Source of the DNA: Polyangia bacterium
Lineage (GTDB): Bacteria; Myxococcota_A; Polyangia; Nannocystales; Nannocystaceae
Direction: 5' to 3'
Assembly (NCBI GenBank): GCA_030430565.1
Contig: JAUIKS010000008.1
Coordinates: 111,225-175,224 of the forward strand
DNA: 64,000 nucleotides
Shown here: in pieces, positions 4,338 to 62,727 of the stretch
Layout of the letters: each line of letters begins with the position of its first letter
How positions within the stretch are numbered: the stretch's first letter is position 1
Notes under the pieces: model-generated
The model's database searches: none
Told to the model about the DNA's origin: nothing
Seen by the model: the letters and a program-made list of their open reading frames with translations, nothing else
Program-made: the position numbers and the translations under genes

Positions 4338-6077
<1,740 letters not shown>

Positions 6078-11641: not shown

Positions 11642-11743
11642 CACCGATCGCTCGGCCGCCCGCGCCGGTGGTTGCACCTACAAATTCCTGCTCTGGCCGC
11701 GCCGAGTTGAGCGCCATGGCGTTCCGTGCGACCGTCCTCGCCT

Positions 11744-16964: not shown

Positions 16965-17087
16965 CGACGTCCGCGCTCGCGCGCGCCGCGACGAATCACA
17001 CATGTCTATGAGGTCATGTGTTATCGCGCTCGCGTACCATCCAGGTGTCGTCGTCATCGCGATGGCGCGCGGCGGGAGGTAGCGAAG

Positions 17088-20408: not shown

Positions 20409-23400
20409 TTGACCCCCGTCGTCGCCCGCGACTCCCGGCGATTTCGCGGCGATGCGATGGGCGATAGACTATCGGCAGGAATGAGCCCGCCTCCTCCCGC
20501 TGCGGGCAGCGCCCCGCCCGATCGACCGGAGCACCCGCAACACATCGGGCACTTCTCCGTGCTGTACACGCTCGGCGAGGGCGGCATGGGCGTGGTCTAC
20601 GCGGCCCGCGACAACAAGCTCGGCCGCAAGGTCGCTATCAAGGTCGTCCACAAGGCGCCGGGTGACGAGTCGCGCGGACGCGCGCGGATGCTCCGCGAGG
20701 CCCAGGCGATGGCTCGCCTCTCGCACCCCAACGTCGTCCAGGTCTACGAGGTCGGGGAGCACGACGGGCAGGTCTACGTCGCCATGGAGTTCGTCAAGGG
20801 GCGAACGCTGCGCGACTGGCAGAACGAGTCGACGCGCTCGTGGAAGGAGATCCTCGAGCGCTACCTCGAGGCCGGGCGCGGGCTCGCGGCGGCCCACAAA
20901 AAAGGCCTCGTGCACTGCGACTTCAAGCCGCACAACGTCCTCGTCGACGACGAGGAGGGCCGCGTGCGGGTCCTCGACTTCGGGCTCGCGCGCACCTACC
21001 ACCAGCAGAGCGTCAACGTGAAGGCGCGCAAGGCCGCGGCGCTCGGCGCCCAGCGTGCCGGCCTCGAGACCCTCGAGACCTCGATGACGGTCTCGGACAC
21101 CGTGACCGGCACGCCCGCGTACATGTCCCCAGAGCAATACCAGGGCCGACGCGCGACGGCCTACAGCGACCAGTTCAGCTTCTGCGTCGCGATCTACGAG
21201 GGGCTCTACGGCGCGCGCCCGTTCTCGGGGCAGAACCCGGCCGCGCTCGCCTTCCAGGTCAGCGCCGGCGAGATCGAGGACCCGCCCCGCGACGCCAAGG
21301 TCCCGAGCTGGCTGCGCCGCGTGATCGTGCGCGGGCTCTCGCCGGATCCCGAGGAGCGCTGGCCGTCGATGGAGGCGCTGATGTCCGCGCTCCAGCGCGA
21401 CGCCGGCGCCGCGCGCCGCTTCCGGGTCCGCATCGAGGGCATCAACATCGAGCGCTTCAAGCTGCTGTCGTCGGCCGGCTACGAGCAGCTCAAGCCGTTC
21501 CGCGACGGGCAGGCGACGGTCGTCTACGCCGGGCTGCGGGCCGAGGACCACAAGCCGGTGCTCGTGAAGCTGCTGCGCAACGAGGCGCCGACGCCCAGCG
21601 AGCTCGCCCGCATGCGCCGCGAGCGGAGCCTGCTCGAGCGCTTCGATGACCCCGGCGTCGTGCGGGCGCTCCGCCTCGAGCACCACGGCCGCGGCCTCGC
21701 GCTCGCGCTCGAGAACTTCGGCGGCACCTCGCTGCGCCAGCGCATCGTCGAGACCGGCGGCCTCACGGTCGACGAGTTCCTGCGCTTCTCGACCAAGCTC
21801 GTCGACGCGCTCGCGGTCGTGCACGCCGAGGGCCTGGTCCACAAGGACATCAGCCCCGAGCACATCCTGTTCCACCGCGCGAGCGGCCGCGTCGCGCTGA
21901 TGGACTTCGACGTCGCCTCGGAGATCTCGGAGGAGGCGCCCTCGGTCGTCGACCCGGACCAGCTCGAGGGCACGCTCGCCTACATGGCGCCGGAGCAGAC
22001 CGGGCGGATGAACCGCAAGGTCGACTACCGCAGCGACTACTACGCGCTCGGCGTGACCTTCTACGAGGCGCTCACCGGGCAGCTGCCCTTCGAGACATCC
22101 CACCCGATGGAGCTGGTGCACGCCCACATCGCGCTCGCGCCGACGCCCCCCAGCGAGGTCTCCGCCAACGTCCCCGAGGCGCTCTCGCGGATCGTGCTGC
22201 GCCTGATGTCGAAGACGGCCGAGGATCGCTACCAGAGCGCCGACGGCCTCCGCCTCGATCTCGAGCGCTGCGCGCGGGAGTGGGACCGCCACGGCTGGAT
22301 CGAGGACTTCGAGCCCGGCGAGCACGACACCACCGACACCTTCCAGATCCCGCAGAAGCTCTACGGGCGCGAGCACAGCGTCAACCTGCTGATGGCGGCC
22401 TTCGAGCGCGCCGCCAGCGGCTCGACCGAGGTCATGCTGATCGCGGGGCCCTCCGGCATCGGCAAGTCGGCCGTGATCCGCGAGGTCCACAAGCCGATCG
22501 TCGCGCGCCGCGGCTACTTCATCTCCGGCAAGTCCGACCCGCTCAGCCGCGACGTGCCGTACACCGCGATCATCCAGGCCTTCCAGGACCTGTTCAAGCA
22601 GCTGCTGCGCGAGTCCGACGAGTCGCTGCAGCGCTGGCGCGACCGCCTGCTCAAGGCGCTCTCGGGGCAGGGGCAGGTGCTGGTCGACGTCGTGCCCGAG
22701 CTCGAGCTCATCATCGGCGCGCAGGCGCCGGTGCCCGGGCTGCCCCCCACCGAGTCCGCGAACCGCTTCCGCTCGCTGTTCAGCAAGCTGGTGCAGGTGT
22801 TCGCGCGCGAGGAGCACCCGCTCGTGCTGTTCCTCGACGATCTGCAGTGGAGCGACCTCGCCGCGCTCAAGCTGATCGAGCAGCTCGCGATCGACAACGA
22901 GCTCGCCAACCTCCTGATCCTCGGCGCCTACCGCGACCACGAGGTCCCGCCCGACCACCTGCTCAACCAGATCGTGCGCGCGATCGAGGAGGCCGGGCGA
23001 GAGATCGCGCGCCACACCCTGCAGCCGCTCGACCTCGAGCACACCGCGGCGCTGGTCCGCGACACGCTCACGCCGACCAAGCGCGACGCCGGCGAGCTCG
23101 TGCGCGTCATCCAGACCAAGACCGAGGGCAACCCCTTCTTCGTCCGCGTGCTGCTCAGCTCGCTCTACGAGCAGGGCGCGCTGCGCTTCGATCGATCCCA
23201 GGGCGGCTGGCTCTGGGATGACGCCGAGCTCGCCAGCGTGCGGCTCAGCGACGACATCGTCGCGCTCATGAGCTCGCGGATCGGCGAGCTCTCGCGGCCG
23301 GCCCGCGACGCGATCGAGCACGCGGCCTGCCTCGGCAACCGCTTCACCTTAGAGCTGCTCTCGATCATCACGGAGCAGCAGCCGCGGATCGTCGTGCGCG

Positions 23401-26400
23401 ACCTGTGGGAGGCGCTCGAGCGCGGCCTGATCCAGGCGCTCGGCGACTCCTACAAGTACGTCGGCGCGTCCTCCGAGGGCTCCTCGACCACGCTCAGCCT
23501 GCCCCACGACATCGAGTACCGCTTCGTCCACGACAAGGTGCAGCACGCCGCCTACTCGCGCCTCGACCCCCGGCGCCGCCAGGAGATCCACCTCCGCGTG
23601 GGCCGCCTGCTGCTCGCGCGCGCCGAGGCGGACGGCGAGGAGCTCGGCGACAAGCTCTTCACCGTCACCGCGCACCTCGCCGCCGCCGCGCCCTTGATCA
23701 ACGCGCCCGACGAGCGCCTCAACCTCGCGCGCCTCAACCTCGCCGCCGGGCGCCGCGCCAAGCTCGCGATCGCGTACCGCTCCGCGGTCAACCACCTGCG
23801 CAGCGGCGTCGACCTGCTGCCCGACGACGCGTGGCGCTCGCAGTACGAGCTGACCTTCGCGCTGCACCGCGAGCTGATGGAGTCGGAGTACCTCGGCGGC
23901 AACGTCGAGGCCGCGCTCGTGCTGTTTCAGCCGCTGGTCGACCGCGCGCGCACGGACCTCGAGCGCGCCGAGGTCTACGAGCTCAAGGTCTCGCTCGAGA
24001 CCTACCGCAAGCAGAACGCGCTCGCGCTCGCGACCGCCTTCGAGGGGCTCGCGCAGCTCGGCGTCCACCTCCCGCAGAGCGCGACCGTGCCGATCGTGCT
24101 GCTCGAGTTCCTGCGCGTGCAGCTCGCCCGCCGCTGGCGCGGCGCCGAGGAGCTGACGGGCTTGCCCGACCTCGACGAGCCGCGCAAGCGGCTGCTGCAG
24201 CGCCTGCTGACGACCGCCGCCCCGGCCGCGTACTTCGTCGACACCAAGCTCGCCGCGCTGATCCTGCTCAAGAGCGCCCGGATCTCGCTGCGAGATGGCT
24301 ATACGGACATGTCCGCCTTCGGCATCGCCGGCTACGGCTTCGTGCTCTCGGGCGTGTTCGGCCGGCACAAAGAGGCCTACGAGTTCGGCAAGCTCGCGCT
24401 GCGGCTCAACGAGCGCTTCAAGAACTCGTGGCTCGACGTGAAGCTGGACTTCCTCGTCGGCCTGTTCATCGCCAACTGGGTCGAGCCGTTCGCGGCCGCG
24501 CGCCGTCGCCTGCACCGCAGCTACCAGCAGGGCATCGGCCAGGGCGACCTCGCCTTCGCGCTCTACAGCGGCGTCATGTACACCAACGTCGCGCTCGTGC
24601 AGGGGCAGACGGTCGACCGGATCTACGGGCTCGCCGAGAGCATGGAGCCCACGGCCCAGCGCGCCGGCGAGATCGACGGCATCGCCATGCTCACGTCGAT
24701 CAAGCGCATGTGCATGGCGCTGCGCGGCCAGACGCTGCAGCCCACGCGCTTCGACACCGTCGACTGGAGCGAGCAGGACTTCGAGCGCGGCCTCGACGAC
24801 AAGACGACGCCGCAGGCGATGTTTTATTACAACCTGCACAAGCTGATCGCGCTGTACCTGTTCGGCGAGTACGAGGCCGCCCGCGCCGTCAGCACCCGCC
24901 TCGAGCAGCGCCTCGAGACCGTGCTCGCGCAGCCGGCGAGCGCGGACTTCGTGTTCTACGACGCGCTCACGGCCGCCGCGCGCTACGGCGCCGCGACGCG
25001 CCGGGATCGCGGCCGGATCCGCGGGGCGCTCGCGCGCGCGACCAAGAAGCTGCAGCGCTGGAGCGGCTTCTGCCCCAACAACTTCGCCGCGCGCCTGCTG
25101 ATCGTCCGCGCGGAGCAGGCCCGCGTGCTCGGCCGCCGCGACACCTTTATCCTCTACAACCAGGCGATCCAGACCGCGCGCACCCACGAGTCGATCATCT
25201 GCGAGGCGCTCGCGCTCGAGCTCACGGCGCGCTACGCCCTGGGCGCGGGCTACGACGTCGCGGTCGAGTCCTACGCGACCGCGGCCTGCGACGCCTACCG
25301 GCGCTGGGGCGCGCGCGCCAAGGTCGAGCAGCTCAGCCACGAATTCGGCGACCACTTCCCGATGTACGCGCTCCCGCCCGCGCTCGAGGAGCCCGAGCCG
25401 GCCGCCTCCGCCTCCGCGACCATGACGAGCACGGCGCAGGACCTCGACCGCGTCAGCCGCACCTTCCAGTCGATCGTCCACGACCTCAACCTCGACGGCC
25501 TGCTGACCAACATGACGCAGACGCTCACGGAGTTCACCGGGGCGCGCCACTGCGTGGTCCTGCTCGAGCGTGACGGCGCGCTCACGGTCGAGGCCGAGGG
25601 CGGGCTGCCGCCGATGTCGGTGCAGCTCGGGCGCGGGCGCGCGCCGGTCGAGTCCGGGATGCTGTGCGAGACGATCGTCAACTACGTCGCCCGGACCCAC
25701 CAGCCGGTGCTGCTCACGAACGCGGCGGAGCTCGGCGACTTCACCGACGACCCCTACATCAAGCGCGGCTCGGTGCGCTCGGTCCTGTGCGCGCCGATGA
25801 TGCTGCGACGCGATGATCTCGTGGGCGTCGTCTACCTCGAGAACGGCCTCACCCCCGACGTGTTCCGGCACGAGCACGTCGCCTCGCTCGCCCAGCTGCT
25901 GCCGCCCGTCGCCGTCGCGATCAGGACCGCGATGCGCGCCAACTCGTATCGACGCTTCGTGCCCCACGCCGCGCTCGAGCGGCTCGCCACGCGGATGCGC
26001 CGCGAGCTGCGACCCGGCGACCACATCAACCTCGAGGGCACCGTGCAGGCGCTCGCGCTGCGGGGCACCGCCGCGCTGGTCGGCGACGGTCGGGGCATGC
26101 GCAGCGCGCTCACGGTCCTCAACCGCTTCTTCGACGCCGCCGCGTCGATCGCCGAGCGCAACGGCGGCTTCATCGGGGAGCGCGCGAGCGACTCGATGAT
26201 CATCTGCTACCCCGGCGGCTCGGGCCCCGCGCTGACGGCCGCGACCGAGCTGCTCGAGGTCGGCCACGAGCTGTTTATCCGCAGCGAGCACGCCAGCAAC
26301 TACGCCGGCGTCGACGTCGGCGTCGCGCTGCACGCCGGCTCCGTGACGATCGGCGCGGTCGGCAGCGACCACGAGCTCTCGCTCGTCACGCTCTCGCGCA

Positions 26401-26708
26401 CGGTCACGATCGCGAAGACGCTCGCGCGCCGCTGCGACAGCTACGGCGCGCCGCTGCTCATCAGCGAGACCGTCCGGGCCCAGCTCCCCGAGACCGGGAA
26501 CCTCGAGATCCGCGCGCTCAACCGCCTCGACCCCGAGGACGGCATGGGCTCCCTCGGGATCTTCGAGGTCTTCTCGGAGCTTCCGAGCGACGCGCGAGGC
26601 GCGTCGGCGGACGACCAGGCGGGGGAGCGCTACGCGGAGCGGCTCGCGGGCGAGCTGCGCGAGACGCTCACGGACTCGCGCGCAGACCTACCCGTCGAGC
26701 GCTCGTGA
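20409..26708 (+). CDS. Giant multidomain signalling protein: Ser/Thr kinase - atypical second kinase-like domain - AAA/STAND P-loop NTPase - long helical (TPR-like) region - GAF - degenerate class III cyclase-homology domain
   Basis: Kinase 1: LGEGGMGVVYAARD, VAIKVV, HCDFKPHNVLV, DFGLAR, GTPAYMSPEQ. Kinase 2: no Gly loop (FRDGQATVVYAG), VHKDISPEHILF, DFDVASEI, GTLAYMAPEQTGRM. P-loop IAGPSGIGKSAV. GAF: GARHCVVLLERDGALTVEAEGG...VLCAPMMLRRDDLVGVVYLENG. CHD-like: ..FIGERASDSMIICYPGG..DVGVALHAGSVTIGAVGS..LSRTVTIAKTLAR..LLISETV. Alternative starts 20457, 20481. Confidence 0.85.
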   Translation: MTPVVARDSRRFRGDAMGDRLSAGMSPPPPAAGSAPPDRPEHPQHIGHFSVLYTLGEGGMGVVYAARDNKLGRKVAIKVVHKAPGDESRGRARMLREAQAMARLSHPNVVQVYEVGEHDGQVYVAMEFVKGRTLRDWQNESTRSWKEILERYLEAGRGLAAAHKKGLVHCDFKPHNVLVDDEEGRVRVLDFGLARTYHQQSVNVKARKAAALGAQRAGLETLETSMTVSDTVTGTPAYMSPEQYQGRRATAYSDQFSFCVAIYEGLYGARPFSGQNPAALAFQVSAGEIEDPPRDAKVPSWLRRVIVRGLSPDPEERWPSMEALMSALQRDAGAARRFRVRIEGINIERFKLLSSAGYEQLKPFRDGQATVVYAGLRAEDHKPVLVKLLRNEAPTPSELARMRRERSLLERFDDPGVVRALRLEHHGRGLALALENFGGTSLRQRIVETGGLTVDEFLRFSTKLVDALAVVHAEGLVHKDISPEHILFHRASGRVALMDFDVASEISEEAPSVVDPDQLEGTLAYMAPEQTGRMNRKVDYRSDYYALGVTFYEALTGQLPFETSHPMELVHAHIALAPTPPSEVSANVPEALSRIVLRLMSKTAEDRYQSADGLRLDLERCAREWDRHGWIEDFEPGEHDTTDTFQIPQKLYGREHSVNLLMAAFERAASGSTEVMLIAGPSGIGKSAVIREVHKPIVARRGYFISGKSDPLSRDVPYTAIIQAFQDLFKQLLRESDESLQRWRDRLLKALSGQGQVLVDVVPELELIIGAQAPVPGLPPTESANRFRSLFSKLVQVFAREEHPLVLFLDDLQWSDLAALKLIEQLAIDNELANLLILGAYRDHEVPPDHLLNQIVRAIEEAGREIARHTLQPLDLEHTAALVRDTLTPTKRDAGELVRVIQTKTEGNPFFVRVLLSSLYEQGALRFDRSQGGWLWDDAELASVRLSDDIVALMSSRIGELSRPARDAIEHAACLGNRFTLELLSIITEQQPRIVVRDLWEALERGLIQALGDSYKYVGASSEGSSTTLSLPHDIEYRFVHDKVQHAAYSRLDPRRRQEIHLRVGRLLLARAEADGEELGDKLFTVTAHLAAAAPLINAPDERLNLARLNLAAGRRAKLAIAYRSAVNHLRSGVDLLPDDAWRSQYELTFALHRELMESEYLGGNVEAALVLFQPLVDRARTDLERAEVYELKVSLETYRKQNALALATAFEGLAQLGVHLPQSATVPIVLLEFLRVQLARRWRGAEELTGLPDLDEPRKRLLQRLLTTAAPAAYFVDTKLAALILLKSARISLRDGYTDMSAFGIAGYGFVLSGVFGRHKEAYEFGKLALRLNERFKNSWLDVKLDFLVGLFIANWVEPFAAARRRLHRSYQQGIGQGDLAFALYSGVMYTNVALVQGQTVDRIYGLAESMEPTAQRAGEIDGIAMLTSIKRMCMALRGQTLQPTRFDTVDWSEQDFERGLDDKTTPQAMFYYNLHKLIALYLFGEYEAARAVSTRLEQRLETVLAQPASADFVFYDALTAAARYGAATRRDRGRIRGALARATKKLQRWSGFCPNNFAARLLIVRAEQARVLGRRDTFILYNQAIQTARTHESIICEALALELTARYALGAGYDVAVESYATAACDAYRRWGARAKVEQLSHEFGDHFPMYALPPALEEPEPAASASATMTSTAQDLDRVSRTFQSIVHDLNLDGLLTNMTQTLTEFTGARHCVVLLERDGALTVEAEGGLPPMSVQLGRGRAPVESGMLCETIVNYVARTHQPVLLTNAAELGDFTDDPYIKRGSVRSVLCAPMMLRRDDLVGVVYLENGLTPDVFRHEHVASLAQLLPPVAVAIRTAMRANSYRRFVPHAALERLATRMRRELRPGDHINLEGTVQALALRGTAALVGDGRGMRSALTVLNRFFDAAASIAERNGGFIGERASDSMIICYPGGSGPALTAATELLEVGHELFIRSEHASNYAGVDVGVALHAGSVTIGAVGSDHELSLVTLSRTVTIAKTLARRCDSYGAPLLISETVRAQLPETGNLEIRALNRLDPEDGMGSLGIFEVFSELPSDARGASADDQAGERYAERLAGELRETLTDSRADLPVERS

Positions 26709-39774: not shown

Positions 39775-42700
39775 TCAGTCGGCCGACTCACGGAGCTCGC
39801 TGTCGCTGGGTCGCTCGCCCCCCGCGGCCTCGGACTCGCTCGCGTCCTCAGACGCGACGGGGGCGGGTAGGTCCGCAGATGGGGCGACCTCCGCCTCACC
39901 GTCTCCGCCGTCACTCGCCTCCTCCACGACCTCGGCGGCCGGGTCCGCGTGCTCAACGACCGCCGGCGCCGACGCTTCCTCAACTGCGCCCTCGACAGCT
40001 TCCCCCACGTCGGCGGCGCTCGCCTCCGTGGTTTCGACAGCCTCCGCGTCGGCCGGTGACGCGGCGGCCTCCTCGACCTGCGCTTCGGCGTTCTCCGCTG
40101 GCGAGGCTGCTTCAAGCTGGTCCTCGGGCGCCGCTTCGCCACCTGCCTCCGCCGACTCCCCGGCGACCTCCTCCGACATCACCTCGCCGGCTTCCTCGGG
40201 CTCCGAGATGGTCTCCTCCGCCGCTTCGCCGACCTCCTCCGCGGACCCCTGGGGCTCCTCGACGGCCTCCTCCGCCGCGTCGCTGGTCTCCGATGACGAC
40301 GCTTCGTCGGCCCCCTCGGGCTCCTCGACTGTCACCCTCGCGGTATCCACGGCCTCCTCCGGCGCCGCTTCAACGGGCCGCGACTCCTCCACCTCCGGGG
40401 CGGCTTCTGGACCGCTCACGACCTCGCCCGCGTCGACAACCTGCGCGGGGCCGTCGTCGCTCGCCGCGAAGCTCGTGAGCTCAACCTCCGCCGTCGCCGG
40501 ATCGGACACGGCCGCCTCGGCCCTCGCCAGCTTCGCGGCGAGCTCGAGGTCAAGGAGCCTCGCGCGACCGATCGTCGGATCGTCGCTCAGCAGGCGCTCG
40601 TAGGCCAGCGGATCGCCGCGCTCCAGCTCGCCCGGCTCGGCGTCGCCGAGCAGCTGACGGACGCCGCGTCGCGAGCCGTAGTAGTTGCCGCGGTTGTGGT
40701 CCGCGTCGGTGTTGCACTTGCGGACCAGCGAGCGCGAGATCGGCGGGAGGTTCAGCATGTCGAGCGCGCGCTCCCACAGCTGACCGAGGCGGTTCTGATC
40801 TGCCGGGTACTCGAGCAGGCTCGCCAGCAGCAGCAACAAGCCGCCGCGCTGCCCCGCGATCGTGTCGATGGGCTCACGCCCGCCGAGGTGCCCGAGGTCG
40901 ACCGCGCGCCACCAGGCGTCGGCGGCGATCAGCAGTCGCTTCAGCTCCTGCGGCGTGTGGCTGAGCCACGAGTTGTACATGACCTCCGCGACCAGGCCGC
41001 CCGGCGCCGCGGGATCCTTTAGATAGCGAACAACCGCCGGGAGCCGCCCGAGCTCCTGCGCCGGCCCGTCGCCGGTCGGCACGTCGCTGGGCGGGTGCGC
41101 GGGGCTGTAGAAGCCCGCGCCGCGAAACGCGTAGAAGCGCTCCGCCTCGCCGGGCAGCTCATCCCACAGCTCGCTGTACTGCGTCACCCGGTTGAGGCTC
41201 CCAGCCGACCAGCCGAGCCCGCGCGCGGCGGCGCCGCTGACCTGTGACGCCGCGACCCCGGGGTCGCGCGGGACAGCCCCCTCGCGCGTGTCCTCGGCGA
41301 TCTCGATCAGCGTGAAGTCGAGGAAGCCGTCGTAGTAATCGGCCTTGCCGTCGTGGTTGATGTCCTCGTAGCGCGCGACGACGCTGCGGTGCGCGGGCCC
41401 GACGAATTGCACGAAGCCCTCGACGCGGTTCTGCTTGTGATACCACTGGGCTTCGCGGATCCGCGCGTCGATCTGGACGAAGCTCTCGCCGGCGGCGAAG
41501 CCCTGCAGGATCGCGTGAAAGCAGTCGCAGGCCTCCGACTCGATGATCTTGTGGCTCCCGTCGGTGCGGAAGTAGGTCGAGTCCCACGACGAGTAGATGT
41601 CGGCCTCGGGGAACATCCGCGAGATCGCGAAGCGCGTGGTCAAGCCGGCGCACTGACAGTTGATCTGCAGCTTGTACCCGCGCTGCTCGACGGCGACGGT
41701 CGAGGCCGCCATGTCGTTCGAACCGAGGTTGGCGTGCCGGCTGATGCAGTGCCCGACGAAGTACGCCTCGCCCATCTCGAAGTTCTCGCTGCGCGGGCTC
41801 GTCGCGCGCAGCAGCAGCTGGATCTTCTGTCCCTTGGGCCCGGTAAAGGGCGCCTCGAGGGCCTTGTAGCCGCGGTAGCCCGGCGGCGCGGGGGCGTCCT
41901 CCGGGACCTCGATCTCGGCGAAGCTGTACTTGTCGCGCATGACCTCGTACTCGCCGGGGTGAAAGTCGTAAGCGCTCGCGAAGGCGAAGCGCCAGGTGTC
42001 GCCGAGCTCGTCGTAGGGCGGCGCCTCGCGCAGGTAGCCGCGCTGCAGCGCGACGACCCGCGCGCGGTCTTCCTCCGACAGCGCCGGGCCGCGCTGCGAG
42101 AGCAGCTGGATCGCGTGGGCGCGCAGCTCGGGCCGCGCCCCCGCCCCGACCTCCGCGTCGATCAGCGCGAAGATCATCGCCGCGGCCCGGTCCGCGAGCG
42201 CGCGAAACCCCGGGTCCTTCAGCGCCGTCGCGAGCACGTGCGAGAGCACCGTCAGGACCGCCGAGCGCAGCTGCACCGCGTCGACCCCGGCCGCCCGCGC
42301 CTCCTCGCGCGTCGGCGCGGCCGCCCGCGAGATCGCCTCGAGCTGTCCCAAGAGACCTTCGCCCTGCGCGGGCGAGAGCCGGTCGGCGCGGCGCGCCTGC
42401 TCGGGGTGAAAGGCGCTCGGCGGGAACAGGCACTCGAAGCTCGTCGTGCGTCGCGACGAGACCCAGCGCGCGGCGTTGACCATGACGTCGAGCGCGTCGA
42501 GCCCACGCGGCGCCGCGCCCTCCTCGCTCGCCGCGAGCGTGCCGTCGGCGCGCAGCAGCAGCGGCGCCGCGCCGAACATCCCCTCGGTCAGGTTGAGCGC
42601 GGGCGGCTCATCGCGCAGCAGCCCGCGCCCCGCGGCCTCGCGGAGGCGACAGCGCAGACCGGCGCGCCCTTCGAACTCAACCAGCACGCGTCGACCGATG

Positions 42701-42927
42701 GCGCCCTGCACGAGCGCGCGGCGGTCGTCACCGAGCGTGACGAGCGAGCGAAGATGGAACGAGCGCGCGCCGGCGCACAGCAGCTGCGCCCCCTCAGCGC
42801 CCCGGGCCTGCTCAAAGCTCGAGCCCGCCTCGTCGCCCGAGGCGACCACCTCGACGGAGATCGCGACTCGCTCGTCGTCACCGGCGCCGCGCGGAGCGGG
42901 CACCCAAAGCTTCACTTCGTTCGCCAT
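39775..42927 (-). CDS. Large hypothetical protein (1050 aa) with GHC motif and ~250-aa acidic Glu/Ala-rich C-terminal tail
   Basis: ATG 42927 preceded by GAAGGAAG. Central region with GEAYFVGHCISRHANLG...CQCAGLTTRF...ACDCFH. C-terminal low-complexity EEAVEEPQGSAEEVGEAAEETISEPEEAGE.... The antisense Pro/Arg-rich ORF 39678-40478 is junk. Confidence 0.65.
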   Translation of the reverse strand: MANEVKLWVPAPRGAGDDERVAISVEVVASGDEAGSSFEQARGAEGAQLLCAGARSFHLRSLVTLGDDRRALVQGAIGRRVLVEFEGRAGLRCRLREAAGRGLLRDEPPALNLTEGMFGAAPLLLRADGTLAASEEGAAPRGLDALDVMVNAARWVSSRRTTSFECLFPPSAFHPEQARRADRLSPAQGEGLLGQLEAISRAAAPTREEARAAGVDAVQLRSAVLTVLSHVLATALKDPGFRALADRAAAMIFALIDAEVGAGARPELRAHAIQLLSQRGPALSEEDRARVVALQRGYLREAPPYDELGDTWRFAFASAYDFHPGEYEVMRDKYSFAEIEVPEDAPAPPGYRGYKALEAPFTGPKGQKIQLLLRATSPRSENFEMGEAYFVGHCISRHANLGSNDMAASTVAVEQRGYKLQINCQCAGLTTRFAISRMFPEADIYSSWDSTYFRTDGSHKIIESEACDCFHAILQGFAAGESFVQIDARIREAQWYHKQNRVEGFVQFVGPAHRSVVARYEDINHDGKADYYDGFLDFTLIEIAEDTREGAVPRDPGVAASQVSGAAARGLGWSAGSLNRVTQYSELWDELPGEAERFYAFRGAGFYSPAHPPSDVPTGDGPAQELGRLPAVVRYLKDPAAPGGLVAEVMYNSWLSHTPQELKRLLIAADAWWRAVDLGHLGGREPIDTIAGQRGGLLLLLASLLEYPADQNRLGQLWERALDMLNLPPISRSLVRKCNTDADHNRGNYYGSRRGVRQLLGDAEPGELERGDPLAYERLLSDDPTIGRARLLDLELAAKLARAEAAVSDPATAEVELTSFAASDDGPAQVVDAGEVVSGPEAAPEVEESRPVEAAPEEAVDTARVTVEEPEGADEASSSETSDAAEEAVEEPQGSAEEVGEAAEETISEPEEAGEVMSEEVAGESAEAGGEAAPEDQLEAASPAENAEAQVEEAAASPADAEAVETTEASAADVGEAVEGAVEEASAPAVVEHADPAAEVVEEASDGGDGEAEVAPSADLPAPVASEDASESEAAGGERPSDSELRESAD

Positions 42928-56315: not shown

Positions 56316-57386
56316 ATGACCGCCTCCTCCGCAGTCGACAAGACCGGCGCGCTGCTCATCAACCTCGGCACCCCCGAGGCGCCCGAGCCTGGACCCGTCC
56401 GCCGATACCTGCGCGAGTTCCTCTCGGATCCGCGCGTGATCGACATCAACCCGATCGGCCGCTGGTTGTTGCTCAACCTGATCATCTTGCCGTTCCGCCC
56501 GGCCCGCTCGGCCGCCGCCTACCGCAAGGTGTGGACGCCGAAGGGCTCCCCCCTGCTCGTGCACGGCCGCGAGCTCACGGCCGCGGTGCAGCGGCGGCTC
56601 CCAGACTGGGAGGTCCGCCTCGCCATGCGCTACGGCGAGCCGTCCCTGCGCGACGGCCTCACCGCGCTGCGGGCGGCCGGCTGCGACCGCATCGTCGCCA
56701 TGCCGCTGTATCCGCAGTTCGCCTCCAGCTCCACGGGCTCGACGGTCGAGGCGCTCTACGCCGAGGTCGGTCGCCACTGGAACACGCCCTTCGTCACGGT
56801 CGTGCCGCCGTTCTACGAGCACCCCGACTTCATCGAGGCCCTCGCGGCGCGCGGTCGGCCCGTGCTCGACGATCTCGACCCCGAGCACGTGCTGTTCAGC
56901 TTCCACGGGCTCCCAGTGCGTCACGTCACCAAGAGCGCGCCGAGCGGCTGCTGCCGCGTCGACGACGAGTGCTGCGCGCGGATCTCGATCGAGAACCAAA
57001 ATTGCTACCGCGCGCAATGCTTCGCGACGGCGCGCGCGCTCGCCACGGCGCTCGGCCTTGAAACACCTGACTACACGGTCAGCTTCCAGTCGCGCCTCGG
57101 CCGGACCGAGTGGATCAAGCCGTACACGGACATCGTGATCGAGGAGCTCGGCAAGCGCGGCGTGAAGCGGCTCGCGGTGTTCTGCCCGGCGTTCGTCGCC
57201 GACTGTCTCGAGACCTTGGAGGAGATCGGGATCGCGGCCGCCGAGAGCTTCCGCGAGGCCGGCGGAGACCGCCTCGAGCTGGTCCCCGCCGTCAACGCGA
57301 CGGATCGCTGGGCCGACGGCGTGGCGGCGATCCTCCAGGCGAGCGAGCCCCCGGCGAGCCGCCGCCAGCTGCCCGTCGTCACCTAG
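56316..57386 (+). CDS. hemH: Ferrochelatase
   Basis: ATG 56316. LLINLGTPEAPEPGPVRRYLREFLSDPRVIDI, MRYGEPS, FSFHGLP, CPAFVADCLETLEEI. The upstream extension of the ORF to 56199 is junk. Confidence 0.9.
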   Translation: MTASSAVDKTGALLINLGTPEAPEPGPVRRYLREFLSDPRVIDINPIGRWLLLNLIILPFRPARSAAAYRKVWTPKGSPLLVHGRELTAAVQRRLPDWEVRLAMRYGEPSLRDGLTALRAAGCDRIVAMPLYPQFASSSTGSTVEALYAEVGRHWNTPFVTVVPPFYEHPDFIEALAARGRPVLDDLDPEHVLFSFHGLPVRHVTKSAPSGCCRVDDECCARISIENQNCYRAQCFATARALATALGLETPDYTVSFQSRLGRTEWIKPYTDIVIEELGKRGVKRLAVFCPAFVADCLETLEEIGIAAAESFREAGGDRLELVPAVNATDRWADGVAAILQASEPPASRRQLPVVT

Positions 57387-58093
57387 GCCCGCGCCTGGGG
57401 ACGCGTCGCGCTCGACGCGGCGCCGCGCTTTCTCCGACGCGGCCCGCGACGCGCGCCCGCCAGCGTGAGCACGTGCTCGAAGTGGGCGCGCTGGACCGGC
57501 TGAATCGAGAGTCGCTGGCCGCGCTGCACGACGAGCATCTCGGCGAGCGCGAGCTCGGCCTTCAACGCCTCGAGCGACACCGGATCCGCGAACTTCTCGA
57601 CGAACTCGACATCGACCATGACCCACCGCGGGTTCGCGGGGTCGGACTTTGGATCGTGGTACTTGCTGCCCGGATCGAAGGCGGTGTGGTCGGGATACGC
57701 GGTCTTGCAGACCCGCGCGAGGCCGACCACGCCGGGGGGCTTGGCGTTGGAGTGGTAGAAGAACACCCAGTCGCCGACGCGCATGTCGTCGCGCATAAAA
57801 TTACGCGCCTGGTAGTTGCGGATCCCGTCCCACTCGGCGCTCTTGTCCCGCGCGAGGTCGTCGATCGAGTACGCGTCGGGCTCGCTCTTCATGAGCCAGT
57901 AGCCGGTGGCCGCGAGGGCCGGGTTCTTCACCGGAGGCTTCTTCGCCGCCTTCTTCTTCGTGGCCTTCTTCGTGGCCTTCTTCGTGACCTTCTTCGCCGC
58001 CTTCTTCGTCGCCGGCTTCTTCGTCACCGGCTTCTTCGTGGCCTTCTTCGCCGCCTTCTTCGTCGCCTTCTTCGTCTTCCGTGTCGCCGGCAT
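57383..58093 (-). CDS. EVE (PUA-like) domain protein with N-terminal histone-H1-like Lys/Ala/Thr-rich repeat tail
   Basis: ATG 58093. Tail MPATRKTKKATKKAAKKATKKPVTKKPATKKAAKKVTKKATKKATKKKAAKK encoded by a ~12-bp tandem repeat (acgaagaaggcc). EVE core GYWLMKSEPDAYSIDDL...WDGIRNYQARNFMRDDMRVGDWVFFYHS...GVVGLARV...RWVMVDVEF. Confidence 0.8.
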   Translation of the reverse strand: MPATRKTKKATKKAAKKATKKPVTKKPATKKAAKKVTKKATKKATKKKAAKKPPVKNPALAATGYWLMKSEPDAYSIDDLARDKSAEWDGIRNYQARNFMRDDMRVGDWVFFYHSNAKPPGVVGLARVCKTAYPDHTAFDPGSKYHDPKSDPANPRWVMVDVEFVEKFADPVSLEALKAELALAEMLVVQRGQRLSIQPVQRAHFEHVLTLAGARRGPRRRKRGAASSATRPQARA

Positions 58094-58149
58094 CGCCGGA
58101 TTCGTGCCCGGTTTTTCCGTCGCGCGCAAGGCTCCGCGAAAGCCTGATA

Positions 58150-59268
58150 ATGTCGTGGCGCGTGAAGGGAACCCGCAGCGTCACCGCGGCAGTCGGCGCG
58201 CGGCTCGTGCAGTCGAGCTGGGTGCGACGACTCGGGCGGATCAGCTTCCTCGGGACGCTGGACTATCACCCCGGCAGCACGGCCGCGAGCACGCGCCTCG
58301 AGCACTCCATGGGCGTCGCCCGGCTGGGCGTGGAGATCGCCGAGTCCCTCGAGCTCGATCGCGCGACCACCCGCAGCTTCGTCGCCGCCTGCCTGCTCCA
58401 CGACATCGGGCACTTCCCGCTCTCGCACGCGGCCGAGCCAGGCTTCGCGCGCGCCCTAGGCGTGGCTCATCACGGCGTCTCCGAGTGGATCATCCTCGGC
58501 AACGGGCCGATCCCCCGCGCGCTCTCGCTGCGCCCGCTGCTCGAGGCCGAGGGCCTCGAGCCCGCGCTGCTGTGGGCGCTCATCACCGGCGACGCGGACA
58601 ACCTGAGCCCGCTGCAGCGTAGCCTGTCGCGCCTGCTGCTGGCGCCGATCAACCTCGACACGCTCGACGGCATCGTCCGGGCCGCGCGCGCCTTCGGGAT
58701 CCGCGGGGTTCGTCTGCGCGAGCCGCTGTTTGTCCGCGCGGGCGCCGAGGTCGCTATTCGACCCGAGGCGGTCCCGATCCTCGATCGCTTCTGGGCGCTC
58801 AAGGATCGGGTCTACTGCGACGTCATCAACCTGCCGTCGAACATCGTCTGCGAGGCGCGTCTCTCGTCGGCGGTCGCCCGACGCTACGACCGCGCGATCT
58901 TCGGCGGCTTCGAGCGCTTCGACGATCACGTGCTGGCGTCGCTGCTCGAGGAGCACCTGCGCGACAGCGGGCTGCTCGAGGGCCGCGACGATCCCTTCCA
59001 GTTCCGCCGCGACTCGGACGAGCGCGCCGACGCGGCGCTGCACCTGCGCCGCGCCCGAAAGCGATACTTCGTCGATCACACCGTGCTGCCCGACGAGCGC
59101 GGCCTCCGGCTCGAGCAGTGGCCGCGTCGCTATCGACACGAGCGCCAGATCATGTACCTCGTCCCCCGCCGCGCGAGCCGTCAGCTCGTGCTGCCCGGGC
59201 TCGCGCTCGACAAGGACGACGCCCCCCCGATCCCCGGGTACTCCGCCGTCGACGGACCCGACATCTGA
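58150..59268 (+). CDS. HD-domain phosphohydrolase
   Basis: ATG 58150. HSMGVARL...CLLHDIGHFPLSH (H..HD metal motif), ..DGIVRAARAFG. 372 aa. Confidence 0.75.
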   Translation: MSWRVKGTRSVTAAVGARLVQSSWVRRLGRISFLGTLDYHPGSTAASTRLEHSMGVARLGVEIAESLELDRATTRSFVAACLLHDIGHFPLSHAAEPGFARALGVAHHGVSEWIILGNGPIPRALSLRPLLEAEGLEPALLWALITGDADNLSPLQRSLSRLLLAPINLDTLDGIVRAARAFGIRGVRLREPLFVRAGAEVAIRPEAVPILDRFWALKDRVYCDVINLPSNIVCEARLSSAVARRYDRAIFGGFERFDDHVLASLLEEHLRDSGLLEGRDDPFQFRRDSDERADAALHLRRARKRYFVDHTVLPDERGLRLEQWPRRYRHERQIMYLVPRRASRQLVLPGLALDKDDAPPIPGYSAVDGPDI

Positions 59269-59291: not shown

Positions 59292-60332
59292 ATGACCATC
59301 GAGCCAGCGATCGACGCGACGCCCTACGACTACGCCGCGCTGCTCCCCGAGCTCGGGATGTCCGAGGGCGAGCTGCCGGCGATCCGCGCGGCCTCGCGTC
59401 GCTCGTGGGCGACGATTCAGCGCGCGCGCGCCCAGCTCGCGCCGCTGCGAGCGCAGCGACACCTGGTGGGTCTCGCGATCTTCGCGGTCGGCTCGGTCGG
59501 CCGCTTTGAGTCGTCCGAGCGCAGCGATCTCGACCTCGCGGTGCTCCGCGTCCGCGCGCCGCCGAGCGCGGACGCGGCCGAGGAGGCGCGCGCGCGCGTC
59601 GTCAGCCGGCTCCGCGCGCTCACGCTCGACGTGACTGAAAAGACATTTCGACGCGTCATCGATCTGCGCGCGCTCCTCCGCGACATCGGCGGCAGCGCGG
59701 ACAACAATGACCACCTGACCTACCGCGCGCTGCTGCTCACCGAGGGCGCGTGGCTGGCGGAGGCCGACGCCAGCGCCCTCTCGCTGACCCGCATGTTCGA
59801 CGCGTACACCCGCGGGCGCATCGCGCCGGGCCGCTACTTCACCGCGCTCAGCAACGACCTCCACCGCTACTACCGGACGCTCTGCGTCGACTACCGCTTC
59901 AAGGTCGAGGAGGCCAACAAGCGCTGGGCCGTCCGGCTGCTCAAGCTCCGTCACTCACGCAAGCTCTGGCACCTCGCCAACATCGCGACCTACTGCGCCG
60001 CCGCCCAGGTCGACGACGCGTCCCGCGAGTCGCTGCTGCGCCGCGAGCTCGGCGAGCCGCCGCTGTGGCGCCTCGTCAAGAGCATGCGCCGACTCGACGG
60101 CCTGCCCCTGTGCCCGCCGATCCTCCGCAGCTACGATCGCTTCCTCGCCGCGCTCGCCGACGCGAACGCGCGCGCCGAGCTCGATCGGCTGGCCCACGAC
60201 GACCGACACCAGAGCCCGGTGTTTTGCGCCCTCTACAGCAACGCGGATGAGTTCACCCAGGCGACGCACGCGATCATCGAGCACCTGTGGGATCGCTGTC
60301 ACGATCACCTGCTGCGCTACGGGATCCTCTAG
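59292..60332 (+). CDS. Pol-beta-superfamily nucleotidyltransferase with C-terminal helical domain
   Basis: ATG 59292, 23 nt after the HD gene. LAIFAVGSVGRFESSERSDLDLAVL (GS...G......SD.D signature), downstream LTLDVTE (candidate third carboxylate). Helical C-terminal half. Confidence 0.7.
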   Translation: MTIEPAIDATPYDYAALLPELGMSEGELPAIRAASRRSWATIQRARAQLAPLRAQRHLVGLAIFAVGSVGRFESSERSDLDLAVLRVRAPPSADAAEEARARVVSRLRALTLDVTEKTFRRVIDLRALLRDIGGSADNNDHLTYRALLLTEGAWLAEADASALSLTRMFDAYTRGRIAPGRYFTALSNDLHRYYRTLCVDYRFKVEEANKRWAVRLLKLRHSRKLWHLANIATYCAAAQVDDASRESLLRRELGEPPLWRLVKSMRRLDGLPLCPPILRSYDRFLAALADANARAELDRLAHDDRHQSPVFCALYSNADEFTQATHAIIEHLWDRCHDHLLRYGIL

Positions 60333-60413: not shown

Positions 60414-62324
60414 CTAGCCGCCGCGCGGGACTTCGAACTTCGTCACGACGCCCTCCTCGGGGTCGATCTCGACGTTCTCGCTGTTGTTGGCCTTCTTGGT
60501 CGTCTTCTTGAGCGTCAGCTTGAGCGGCTTGGGCTTCTTGCCCTCGGCCAGCGTGACCGTCTTCTTGCTCGATCGATAGCCGGAGAGCTTGAGCGAGATC
60601 TTGTACTCGCCGGGCGCGAGCTCGAGCTCGAGCGGGGTCTTGCCCTTGCTCTCACCGTCGATCTTCACCTCGGCGCCCTTCGGGCTGCTCTCGATCTTGT
60701 ACGAGATCAACGCGGGCTCAGGCGGCGTGTCGCCGGTGGGATCGACGACACCCGAGTCGACGCCCGCAGTCGGATCAGGCGCGCCGGACTCGTCCGCGCC
60801 GGTGGGATCGGGCTCAGCGAGCCGGGCCTTGATCGCCTCCGCGCGCGCGCGCGCCTCGGCGTTGCTCGGGTCACGCGCGAGCACCTCCTCGTAGGCCTCG
60901 AGCGCGTCGCTCAGCTCGCCGGCGCCTTCCTTCGCCTGGGCCTCCGCGAGCATCGCTACCACGGGATCTTCGGCCGGCTCGGCGGTCTCCTCGGCCGCCG
61001 AGTCCGCGACGACGGCGGGCTGCTTCGCAGGATCTCCAGCTTTCTTCTCGTCGGCCGCGCCCGCCGTGACCCGGGAGATCGTCGGCGCCTTCGCGGGACG
61101 CTTGGCGATCGCGGGGCCACCCGCCGGGGAGACCTGGCCGCCGCCGAGGAAGGGCAGCTGCCCCTGGCTGTAGAGATACGCGCCGACCCCACCGAGCGCG
61201 AGCAGCAGCAGCACGATGATCAGGCCGCCGCCGCCCTTGCCCTCGCTCGCCTCCGCGCTCTGGGCCTCTACCACCGGCGCCGGGGATGGCGCCGGCGGCT
61301 CGACCTCCGCGACGGGGCGCGGATCGGCGGCGGGCGCGGGCGCGCTTGGTTGACGTGCGACGACGATCGGCGCGACGGGGCGTGACTCGCGGGCCGCCGT
61401 TGGCGTCGGCATGGCCACGACCCCCTCGGGCTTGCGCGGCGCCGCCTTCGGCAGCCGGAACATGGACGCCGGGACCGAGTCGATCAGGAACTCGACGATC
61501 TCGTTGGCGTCGATCGGGCGCTCGTCTGGATTCTTCGACAAGCACGCGCCGACCAGCTCGATGACGCCCTTGGGGATCGTATGTCCCGAGGGCAACGCGG
61601 TGGCGAGCGAGGTCGGCTGGTCGTTGACGATCTTGTACAGGACCTGCGCGTCGGTCCCCTCGTAGGGCTTCCGGCCCGCGAGCATGGTGTAGAAGAGCAC
61701 GCCGATGCCGTAGACATCGGTCCGCGGGTCGAGCGGACCCTGCTGCACCTGCTCGGGGGCCCAAAACCCCGCCGACGCCTCCGCGTTGGCCTGGTCGGCG
61801 ACATCGCCGAAGATCTGCATCAGGCCGAGATCACAGATCTTTACGAAATTCGCGCGGCCTTTCTCCTCGATCAACAGGATATTCGAGGGCTTGAGCGCGC
61901 GGTGCAGCAGTCCGCGGGCGTGCGCCGCACCCATGGCTTTGAGGACCTGCGCGGCGATCGGCACGAACACTTCGATCGGCAGCGGGCCCTCGCGACCGAG
62001 GAAGTTGTCCAGCGACATCCCCTCGACGTACTCGACGACGACATAGGCGCCGAATTCGGCGGAGAAGCCGTAGTCGTGCACCGCAGTGATGTTGGGGTGC
62101 TCTAGCCCCTGCAGCGCCCTGGCCTCGCGTTCAAAGCGCTGACGGGACTCTGGGGTGCTGGCGACAGCCTCGGGGAGCAGCTTGAGCGCGACGGTTCGAT
62201 GCAGCGTCCGATGGCTCGACAAGTAGACGCGGCCCTTGACCCCGGACCCGAGCAGCCGCTCGAGCGTGTAGTGCGAGCCAACGGTCCGGCCGAGCAGCGG
62301 ATCGGTCTTCGCGGCGACCTTCAT
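60414..62324 (-). CDS. Hanks-type Ser/Thr protein kinase with TM segment, TPR-like segment and C-terminal PEGA domain
   Basis: AAGGAAC then ATG 62324. LLGSGVKGRVYL, VALKLL, HRALKPSNILL, DLGLMQ, GFWAPEQ. TM GGGLIIVLLLLALGGVGAYLY. PEGA YKIESSPKGAEVKIDGESKGKTPLELELAPGEYKISLKLSGY. Confidence 0.85.
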   Translation of the reverse strand: MKVAAKTDPLLGRTVGSHYTLERLLGSGVKGRVYLSSHRTLHRTVALKLLPEAVASTPESRQRFEREARALQGLEHPNITAVHDYGFSAEFGAYVVVEYVEGMSLDNFLGREGPLPIEVFVPIAAQVLKAMGAAHARGLLHRALKPSNILLIEEKGRANFVKICDLGLMQIFGDVADQANAEASAGFWAPEQVQQGPLDPRTDVYGIGVLFYTMLAGRKPYEGTDAQVLYKIVNDQPTSLATALPSGHTIPKGVIELVGACLSKNPDERPIDANEIVEFLIDSVPASMFRLPKAAPRKPEGVVAMPTPTAARESRPVAPIVVARQPSAPAPAADPRPVAEVEPPAPSPAPVVEAQSAEASEGKGGGGLIIVLLLLALGGVGAYLYSQGQLPFLGGGQVSPAGGPAIAKRPAKAPTISRVTAGAADEKKAGDPAKQPAVVADSAAEETAEPAEDPVVAMLAEAQAKEGAGELSDALEAYEEVLARDPSNAEARARAEAIKARLAEPDPTGADESGAPDPTAGVDSGVVDPTGDTPPEPALISYKIESSPKGAEVKIDGESKGKTPLELELAPGEYKISLKLSGYRSSKKTVTLAEGKKPKPLKLTLKKTTKKANNSENVEIDPEEGVVTKFEVPRGG

Positions 62325-62727
62325 CTTAGTTCCTTGCATCGTGCGCCCGTCGTGGTCACTGCCCGGGAAAGACTGTGTGCTTTCTTTGTAAAGCGGCCCA
62401 CAACCCGGAGCGGCTGCACGCGACGTCTCAAAAAATAACACACGCACGAACGACGCCAGCGCTCTCCCACGAGTGAGCGAACGTTTTCGCTCAAACTAGC
62501 CCACACAGACGCACCCGGCGCCGATCCGGTTTGTTGCCCTACCGCATTCGCGCACCGGACCTCGGGAATAATGCGCGATCAACCTTACGATACGCGCGTT
62601 GCCACGCGTCAACGCCCGGACCGCTGGACATCCGTGCACAACCTCATGCAGTGACGTTGCGCCGATCGAGACCAGTCCGTAGCCTCAGACGCGGATATTC
62701 GACGAGCTCGTGGTAGATTTAAACGAC

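Follow-up and report, generated by a model that had tools for sequence, protein, structure and literature searches.

In a 64,000-nucleotide stretch of the Polyangia bacterium contig JAUIKS010000008.1 (hereafter the window, meaning the whole 64 kb at full length; GC content 70.5%), we analyzed a gene that joins a canonical EVE domain to a disordered, lysine-rich N-terminal tail. Comparison with the nearest sequenced relative showed that this tail arose by in-frame tandem amplification of the 12-nt unit ACG-AAG-AAG-GCS (T-K-K-A), that the amplification was seeded in an ancestral short basic N-terminus (M-x-A-T-R-K), and that the tail was gained after the split from that relative. The protein is a new architectural variant of a widespread and known family. 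The mechanism of evolution behind it is a known one, and the tail resembles a known class of lysine-repeat extensions, so that we see here an elaboration specific to the lineage and not a new system. An earlier note on this DNA had placed the open reading frame (ORF) at 57383-58093; our analysis confirmed it there, on the minus strand, with its end at 57383, an ATG at 58093, and 236 amino acids. The parts of the gene and its surroundings used below are the following:

57383..58093, minus strand: whole gene of the 236-aa tail and EVE protein, from ATG 58093 to the stop TAG at 57385-57383.
57902..58093, minus strand: N-terminal disordered basic region, residues 1-64 (from the predicted local distance difference test, pLDDT, composition, and GC content at third codon positions, GC3).
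57938..58075, minus strand: in-frame repeat block T7-K52, with TKKA-type units of 12, 15, or 24 nt (Tandem Repeats Finder and codon parsing).
57464..57901, minus strand: EVE domain, residues 65-210, a predicted PUA-like beta-barrel with the pocket W88/Y145 (Pfam, AlphaFold2, and Foldseek).
57386..57457, minus strand: Arg-rich disordered C-terminal tail, residues 213-236, ARRGPRRRKRG... (composition and pLDDT).
58094..58149, no strand: divergent intergenic region of 56 bp from the EVE ATG to the ATG of an HD gene, containing an in-frame TTG at 58129 (ORF list).
57929..57931, minus strand: internal GTG (V55), the only start from which a tail-less protein could plausibly be made (from the sequence).

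The protein has at its core a canonical EVE domain whose pocket is intact, as judged from its Pfam match, its structural matches, and the alignment of W88 and Y145. The Pfam EVE profile (PF01878) matched at E 1.3e-58 with 197.5 bits (gathering cutoff, 23) over profile positions 2-144 of 145, which supplied the profile confirmation that the earlier note had called for. Sequence matches in the Protein Data Bank included 2eve (6.6e-43) and human THYN1 5j3e (2.9e-37), and also 2g2x, 2ar1, 3eop, 1zce, and 2gbs, with identities to the solved EVE proteins of 42-50% in structural alignments. An AlphaFold2 model, built on 32 homologs, had pLDDT > 90 for residues 61-220, and Foldseek superposed it on 2eve with a TM score of 0.92 (normalized to the target) and a root mean square deviation (rmsd) of 1.6 Å, giving a probability of 1.00 for 2g2x, 2ar1, 5j3e, 3eop, 1zce, and 2gbs. 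The pocket residues W26 and Y82 of 2eve, which were stressed in the original EVE pocket and of which Y82 is equivalent to VcaM4I W82 (PMC7897488), match W88 and Y145 in the sequence alignment, and W88 does not vary in any of the 32 aligned sequences; that pocket was later confirmed in VcaM4I as holding a flipped 5-methylcytosine (5mC) or 5-hydroxymethylcytosine (5hmC) (PMC7897488). The loss of pocket residues, which the earlier note had named among the findings that would refute its claim, was thus not seen, both residues being kept in the sequence alignment. Around this net-acidic core (pI 5.7), neither Pfam nor the AlphaFold2 model revealed a second globular domain, and the 24-residue C-terminal tail, which is partly common to the closest relative, contains 9 K+R and 0 D/E at a pLDDT of about 58-60. 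Searches of the protein against NCBIfam and PADLOC gave no matches, and the effector domain of defense-associated fusions (EVE-HNH or EVE-McrBC type) is missing; we infer that the protein is not part of a defense system.

Stand-alone EVE proteins have been conserved across a range that includes bacteria, marine archaea, and human (THYN1), and the window protein resembles the bacterial members PSPTO5229 and PP5205 (2EVE, 2G2X) over the whole domain (49-50% identity, TM score 0.92-0.93, rmsd 1.4-1.6 Å), including the W26/Y82 pocket. Those proteins are ~150-157 aa long and start 2-3 residues before the YWLMKSEP motif, whereas the window protein has 63 extra N-terminal and 24 extra basic C-terminal residues. 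Since 63 residues precede Y65, whereas the usual short form (~150-165 aa) begins 3-8 residues ahead of YWLMKSEP, we classify it, from these alignments, as a variant architecture of the stand-alone THYN1/PSPTO5229-type orthologous group.

The residues ahead of Y65-W66, 63 in number, are predicted to be disordered (pLDDT about 50 and no secondary structure in the AlphaFold2 model) and are extremely basic, with a pI of 11.8, 26 K+R, 0 D/E, and a net charge of +26. Tandem Repeats Finder reported a period of 12 with 9.8-10.7 copies at 57938-58076 (score 109-138), in line with the ~10 tandem copies of a 12-bp unit described earlier; the units have diverged to 78-80% matches. The earlier figure of ~65 residues of repeats stood less well, as the basic tail is real but only T7-K52 of the 63 residues is repetitive. 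In frame, T7-K52 reads TKKA / TKKAAKKA / TKKPV / TKKPA / TKKAAKKV / TKKA / TKKA / TKKKAAKK, with repeat unit lengths of 12, 24, 15, 15, 24, 12, and 12 nt, each divisible by three. A 26-nt stretch of the block recurs without a mismatch 54 nt away, which points to a higher-order duplication. Residues T7-K56 (50 residues) comprise 48% K, 22% A, 16% T, 8% P, and 6% V, and no acidic residue. Lysine accounts for 24 of these 50 residues, compared to 2.5% in the background of ~18,600 residues of the other GC3-supported ORFs of the window (arginine, 8.8%), with a binomial P of about 3e-25, and across the six frames of the 64 kb we found no comparably lysine-rich stretch, the only other one being much weaker and located in the tail of a kinase.

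The origin of the tail could be traced by comparison with a sister genome. The closest relative of the protein is P0121 (MCB9752620.1; 79% identical in a clustered search), encoded at locus L002 of the Myxococcales metagenome-assembled genome (MAG) GCA_020633295.1, where the gene order is identical: kinase, NTase-like, HD, EVE, ferrochelatase, PPTase, and then, from an FAD monooxygenase onward, amidohydrolase, ACP, AMP-ligase, and acyl-CoA dehydrogenase. The N-terminus of P0121 is MAATRKSRAPRCWLMK. In a gap-tolerant global alignment of the two start regions, the upstream DNA and the ATG with its next five codons (ATG-xCx-GCG-ACA-CGG-AAG) were conserved, after which a net block of 156 nt (52 codons) occurred in the window only, and the alignment resumed at TGG-CTC-ATG-AAG, such that the start region spans 6 codons in the sister and 58 in the window. 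No other start codon was found before the conserved WLMKSEP strand of the sister, so this ATG must be taken as the sister start, and by the alignment ATG 58093 of the window is its ortholog. The tailed protein and its tail-less, 79%-identical, syntenic ortholog thereby constitute a clean natural contrast for the contribution of the tail. The intergenic region between the EVE and HD genes of the sister (L002 7915-7950) carries a small tandem repeat of its own, GTCTTGTCGTG, in ~3 copies, which is absent from the window.

That the tail is translated from ATG 58093 is almost certain, given its coding-type GC3, its units in multiples of three, the conserved sister ATG, and the analogous tails of other EVE proteins. 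GC by codon position was 0.42/0.52/0.97 for the tail in the lysine frame and 0.68/0.46/0.91 for the EVE core, 25 of 25 lysine codons were AAG, all indels between repeat units were multiples of three, and no stop interrupts the 64 codons. In the mechanical ORF list, as in the public gene call (P0001), the protein starts at TTG 58129 and is 248 aa long; this public start is probably 12 codons too long, and ATG 58093 the true one, because the distance from TTG to ATG is 36 nt in the window and 34 nt in the sister, where the TTG is therefore out of frame. Alternatively, the repeat might lie in an untranslated 5′ leader, with a ~182-aa protein starting at GTG 57931 (V55), i.e., downstream of the repeat, as the earlier note had also allowed. 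We consider this very improbable: The GTG sits 10 codons before Y65, near the usual N-terminal length of the family, and its anti-Shine-Dalgarno pairing (-5.3 kcal/mol) is slightly better than that of ATG 58093 (-2.5), but both values are within background, as is the pairing of TTG 58129, GTG 58027, and ATG 57892, and against it stand the GC3 of 0.97, the in-frame units, the uninterrupted 64 codons, the orthology of the ATG and its five codons to the sole possible start of the sister, and the similarly tailed homologs that were called independently.

Other signals and reading frames in this region were set aside. A sigma-70 promoter scan of 57200-58400 found none, and two terminator-like matches in the same scan were dismissed, as they lie inside the repeat or the leader on the wrong strand. 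An antisense ORF at 57906-58622 (plus strand, 238 aa) with an F/A/V-rich start (FFAAFFVAFF) mirrors the KKA repeat, high GC3 included, and could be miscalled as a membrane protein; a second one at 57110-58147 (plus strand, LLRR...) owes its high GC3 to mirroring of the sense frame. Beyond the repeat, the antisense ORFs that pass through it run out of frame through the HD gene.

Tails of this kind turned out to be rare among close relatives and recurrent in the family at large. The best 120 homologs are nearly all 150-170 aa long and start 3-8 residues before YWLMKSEP, and homologs from Nannocystineae often have a short basic N-terminal peptide, e.g., MARRKRRYWLMK. Among 69 scorable species-representative genomes, 67 encode the short form and 2 a long N-terminal extension. 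Of these two, an Isosphaeraceae EVE protein (L010) has a K/A/S-rich N-extension of 49 aa, and the EVE ortholog of a permafrost proteobacterial MAG (L015) has an N-terminal repeat of HKSAV in four copies (15-nt units, about 5890-6003). A HMMER search of 1.84 billion cluster representatives returned 5426 EVE relatives at E <= 0.001; the WLMKSEP-type start motif could be located in 116 of the best 150, of which 42 had an N-extension of at least 25 aa, mostly net positive and in 8 cases with at least 20% lysine, a proportion that is biased upward because the query contained the tail and divergent tails split clusters. The survey of KKA tails that the earlier note had proposed thus showed the architecture to be uncommon nearby (2/69), repeated across the family (42/116 with extensions), and not unique. 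In the papers searched, we found no description of bacterial EVE proteins with such tails.

The tails of these proteins were built from different units. P0013 has 15/27-nt ATAKK units on a contig of 72% GC, P0125 has a tail of 15-nt KKAAP units (two sequencing runs yielded this protein, from genes that differ at one nucleotide), and P0124, from a 62% GC genome, has a tail that is nonrepetitive at the DNA level. Within one 90%-identity cluster, P0252 and P0390 carry tails of AAKKP units whose repeat structure and length are not the same (AAKKPAAKKPAAKPAAKAKAKAKAK versus AAKKPAAKKPAAKKPAAKKPAAKAKAKAK; 205 versus 209 aa), and this pair is direct evidence that such tails change by slippage. None of these other tails matches that of the window protein in lysine density. 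The earlier suggestion that the 12-bp unit might vary in number between strains is plausible in light of the pair. Taken together, these cases showed that comparable basic tails were gained independently, from other repeat units, in other members of the EVE family.

By sequence search, the tail is assignable to no family, because searching 5.8 billion proteins with the tail by itself gave no match at E <= 0.001, and a tail-only Pfam search at E <= 10 gave nothing meaningful, only one chance match (DUF6465, E 6.6). No relationship to Hc1/Hc2 or to AlgP-type nucleoid proteins was detectable in Pfam or among the 5.8 billion proteins. The earlier description of the tail, which arose from a 12-nt repeat, as H1-like was apt for composition: Like the C-terminal domain of H1, the tail is disordered, with ~40-50% K, ~20% A, and no acidic residues. 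Unlike H1, it lies N-terminal to an unrelated fold, T and V replace much of the P and S, the S/TPKK motif (SPKK or TPKK) is absent, the motifs being TKKA and TKKP, and the protein contains no Linker_histone winged-helix domain, EVE being its only Pfam match at E <= 0.01. "H1-like" is therefore a statement on composition and not on chromatin, since linker-histone domain, S/TPKK motif, and tail homologs are all missing and the similarly composed PhaF and AlgP bind other targets. From these comparisons, the resemblance to H1 is convergent and compositional only.

The tail fits the class of lysine-repeat extensions, which is architectural and not a homologous family: a tandem K/A-rich disordered tail attached to a globular nucleic acid-binding domain. 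Lysine repeats stabilize the enzyme-DNA complex of Streptomyces TopA (PMC5714199), PAKKA repeats modulate the DNA binding of Mycobacterium smegmatis Ku (PMC3553676), and Streptomyces DdbA combines an H1-like N-terminal domain with DksA (PMC3643593); tails of this type raise DNA affinity or processivity (PMC5714199, PMC3553676, PMC3643593). The TopA C-terminal domain, the Ku PAKKA tail, DdbA, and HupS/HupB share with the window protein a K/A/(P,T) repeat tail, a globular nucleic acid-binding domain, and a high-GC bacterial host. In the window protein, unlike TopA, Ku, and DdbA, the partner is a modified-base reader, the unit is TKKA and not PAKKA or KPAA, and the host belongs to Myxococcota and not to Actinobacteria. 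PhaF, AlgP, and chlamydial Hc2 have an H1-like composition as well, and their repeat number differs between species or strains (PMC12818456, PMC2848022), much as in the EVE tails of P0252 and P0390. The PhaF and AlgP tails, which have no sequence homology to the window tail, engage other partners: The KPAA repeats of PhaF bind specific mRNAs (PMC12818456), and AlgP associates with polyphosphate granules (PMC9239181, PMC12818456). Within the EVE family, human THYN1/Thy28 (5J3E, 3EOP) has a 42-47% identical core after a basic low-complexity N-terminus, which differs from the window tail in having no tandem repeat, far less lysine, and an independent eukaryotic origin, while fungal THYN1 homologs bear AT-hooks (PMC7641849) and set a precedent for a nonspecific nucleic acid-binding peptide on an EVE domain.

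These comparisons suggest to us that the tail is probably a translated polycationic tether that lifts the nucleic acid affinity of a weak, base-flipping EVE reader. Lineage-specific in-frame amplification of the TKKA unit gave a stand-alone EVE protein a disordered polycationic N-terminus, which, together with the Arg-rich C-terminal tail, would act as a sequence-nonspecific electrostatic tether to polyanionic nucleic acid; DNA and structured RNA are equally plausible as its target. Tethered in this way, the net-acidic and presumably weakly binding EVE core would be more concentrated locally and would stay longer on the nucleic acid, which would let the pocket sample flipped modified bases. 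Polycationic N-terminal tails have been added to EVE many times, in parallel with THYN1, whose N-terminus is basic, and with the AT-hook fusions of fungi, and this recurrent, independent gain suggests that the stand-alone EVE core acts on a polyanionic nucleic acid and gains from extra nonspecific affinity.

Several points weigh against the tether. The closest relative lacks the tail, as do nearly all of the 120 best homologs, so the family's core function does not depend on it, and it may be neutral. The count of extended proteins carries the upward bias given above, and not all N-extensions are basic, that of P0355 having a net charge of -17. We found no Shine-Dalgarno sequence supporting any candidate start of the EVE gene, the conserved sister ATG likewise having none, and the source is a metagenome assembly, in which the copy number of the 140-bp repeat may be imprecise; an identical protein is present in an independent Logan assembly.

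Two more specific readings concern the target, and we hold both as tentative. In the first, the protein would associate with chromatin or the nucleoid and read a DNA modification such as 5mC or 5hmC, with the tail acting like the C-terminal domain of a linker histone. By analogy the target may be DNA, as the THYN1 and VcaM4I structures contain DNA: THYN1 was cocrystallized with 5mC double-stranded DNA (5j3e) and is reported as a 5mC/5hmC reader (PMC7641849), and the VcaM4I EVE domain flips 5mC/5hmC in single- and double-stranded DNA (PMC7897488). The H1-like composition of the tail (48% K, 22% A) points the same way. Against this reading stand the lack of a linker-histone domain, of an S/TPKK motif, and of any Pfam or homology match for the tail, as well as the RNA-binding annotation of the EVE family (IMG names) and the corresponding hypothesis of Bell et al. 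(2020). The search for methyltransferase or base-hypermodification genes suggested in the earlier note also came out negative, as no DNA or RNA methyltransferase, hypermodification, or restriction gene was found among the 33 window ORFs at Pfam E <= 1e-5.

In the second, RNA would be the target of the tailed protein, a reading to which we give the same cautious weight. Bell et al. favor a modified tRNA or 6S RNA as the EVE ligand, the gamma-proteobacterial orthologs lie in a ZapA/5-FTHF cyclo-ligase context with the 6S RNA gene (PMC7641849), and the PhaF repeats bind mRNA (PMC12818456). At locus L083 (6001-7640), the EVE gene of P0124, with its KKA-type tail, overlaps the start of a gene for Dus (tRNA dihydrouridine synthase) by 4 nt in an apparent operon, a possible EVE-tRNA-modification operon judging from the gene arrangement; a second Dus gene lies 2 kb beyond the first. 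Yet this is the only case linked to Dus, the EVE gene has neither an RNA gene nor an RNA-modification enzyme next to it in the window or in the sister MAG, and all experimental EVE-ligand structures so far contain DNA.

The tail may instead be translated and functionally neutral, a slippage product tolerated on a dispensable disordered N-terminus, which we consider unlikely. Its absence from the 79%-identical sister ortholog at an otherwise identical locus and from 67 of the 69 scorable genome-representative loci, and the varying repeat number in the related cluster, speak for neutrality. However, the units have diverged (78-80% matches) and have yet stayed in frame, lysine-rich, and free of acidic residues, the lysines oppose the arginine bias of the genome (K 2.5% versus R 8.8%), and basic tails were gained repeatedly at the same EVE terminus from unrelated units.

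The remaining proposals are weaker. A bacterial "epigenetic chromatin reader," in which the tail would coat or compact chromosomal DNA, the EVE pocket would recognize a DNA modification, and variation in repeat length would tune nucleoid binding between strains, strikes us as improbable; if it were true, the recurrent EVE tails would mark a widespread, unrecognized class of modification-sensitive nucleoid-associated proteins. Still more improbable is a tail directed at a different polyanion or at a condensate (granules of polyphosphate, ribosomes, or phase-separated nucleoprotein bodies), for which the association of the H1-like AlgP with polyphosphate granules (PMC9239181, PMC12818456) is the precedent, but no polyphosphate-related gene lies nearby and the attached domain is a nucleic acid base reader.

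The genes around the EVE gene gave no further indication of its function. The HD gene (58150-59268, plus strand), whose ATG at 58150 agrees with the 372-aa public call, lies divergently at 56 bp, and 23 nt after it follows the gene of an NTase-like protein (59292-60332, plus strand, 346 aa), so that the divergent, 56-bp arrangement with an HD and NTase pair was described correctly before. The HD protein has only a dGTPase/SAMHD1-like HD motif, the NTase-like protein matches the PADLOC candidate-defense model PDC-M70A over its full length (E 1.1e-35), and their spacing makes a two-gene operon probable; the two are 83% and 78% identical to their sister counterparts. On the other side, hemH (56316-57386, plus strand) ends in a stop TAG (57384-57386), and the stop codon of the EVE gene, which reads CTA on the plus strand, occupies 57383-57385, such that the genes overlap by 4 nt in a shared CTAG, again as noted before. 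This overlap is not conserved, the gap being 60 nt in the sister.

EVE genes are reported to adjoin heme-biosynthesis operons in Alphaproteobacteria (Bell et al. 2020, PMC7641849). In a tblastn search of the six neighbors against 80 other EVE loci, including other Myxococcota, none was found, and only the sister MAG retains the HD/NTase pair, hemH, PPTase, and kinase beside EVE; an all-against-all clustering of neighboring ORFs likewise gave lineage-specific contexts only. Because the neighbors are conserved in the sister MAG alone, we read the divergent arrangement as no sign of a functional link, and the comparison lends an EVE-HD/NTase or EVE-hemH link no support beyond synteny with one sister genome. 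The ZapA/5-FTHF cyclo-ligase upstream context was seen only at gamma-proteobacterial EVE loci, and the beta/gamma-proteobacterial ZapB-ZapA-ssrS-(FAU1)-EVE neighborhood, in whose ZapA context Bell et al. put the 6S RNA gene and from which they propose that EVE binds modified RNA (PMC7641849), is absent at the window locus, unlike at those of PSPTO5229 and PP5205; the neighbors here are hemH, PPTase, HD, and NTase-like genes.

Elsewhere in the window, four large GC3-supported ORFs (479-1050 aa) are without a Pfam match at E <= 1e-5: 9815-11677 (minus strand), 11726-13165 (plus strand), 17016-19793 (plus strand), and 39775-42927 (minus strand). A 1333-aa protein (30752-34753, minus strand) contains a major-vault-protein "shoulder" domain (PF11978, E 9e-28) and has no other Pfam match. 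A 2099-aa protein (20409-26708, plus strand) combines two Ser/Thr kinase domains with an AAA_16 ATPase and a GAF domain, and further kinases are encoded at 4338-6077 (plus strand) and 60414-62447 (minus strand), the latter with a PEGA domain and, at 60510-60608, a C-terminus that is moderately rich in K.

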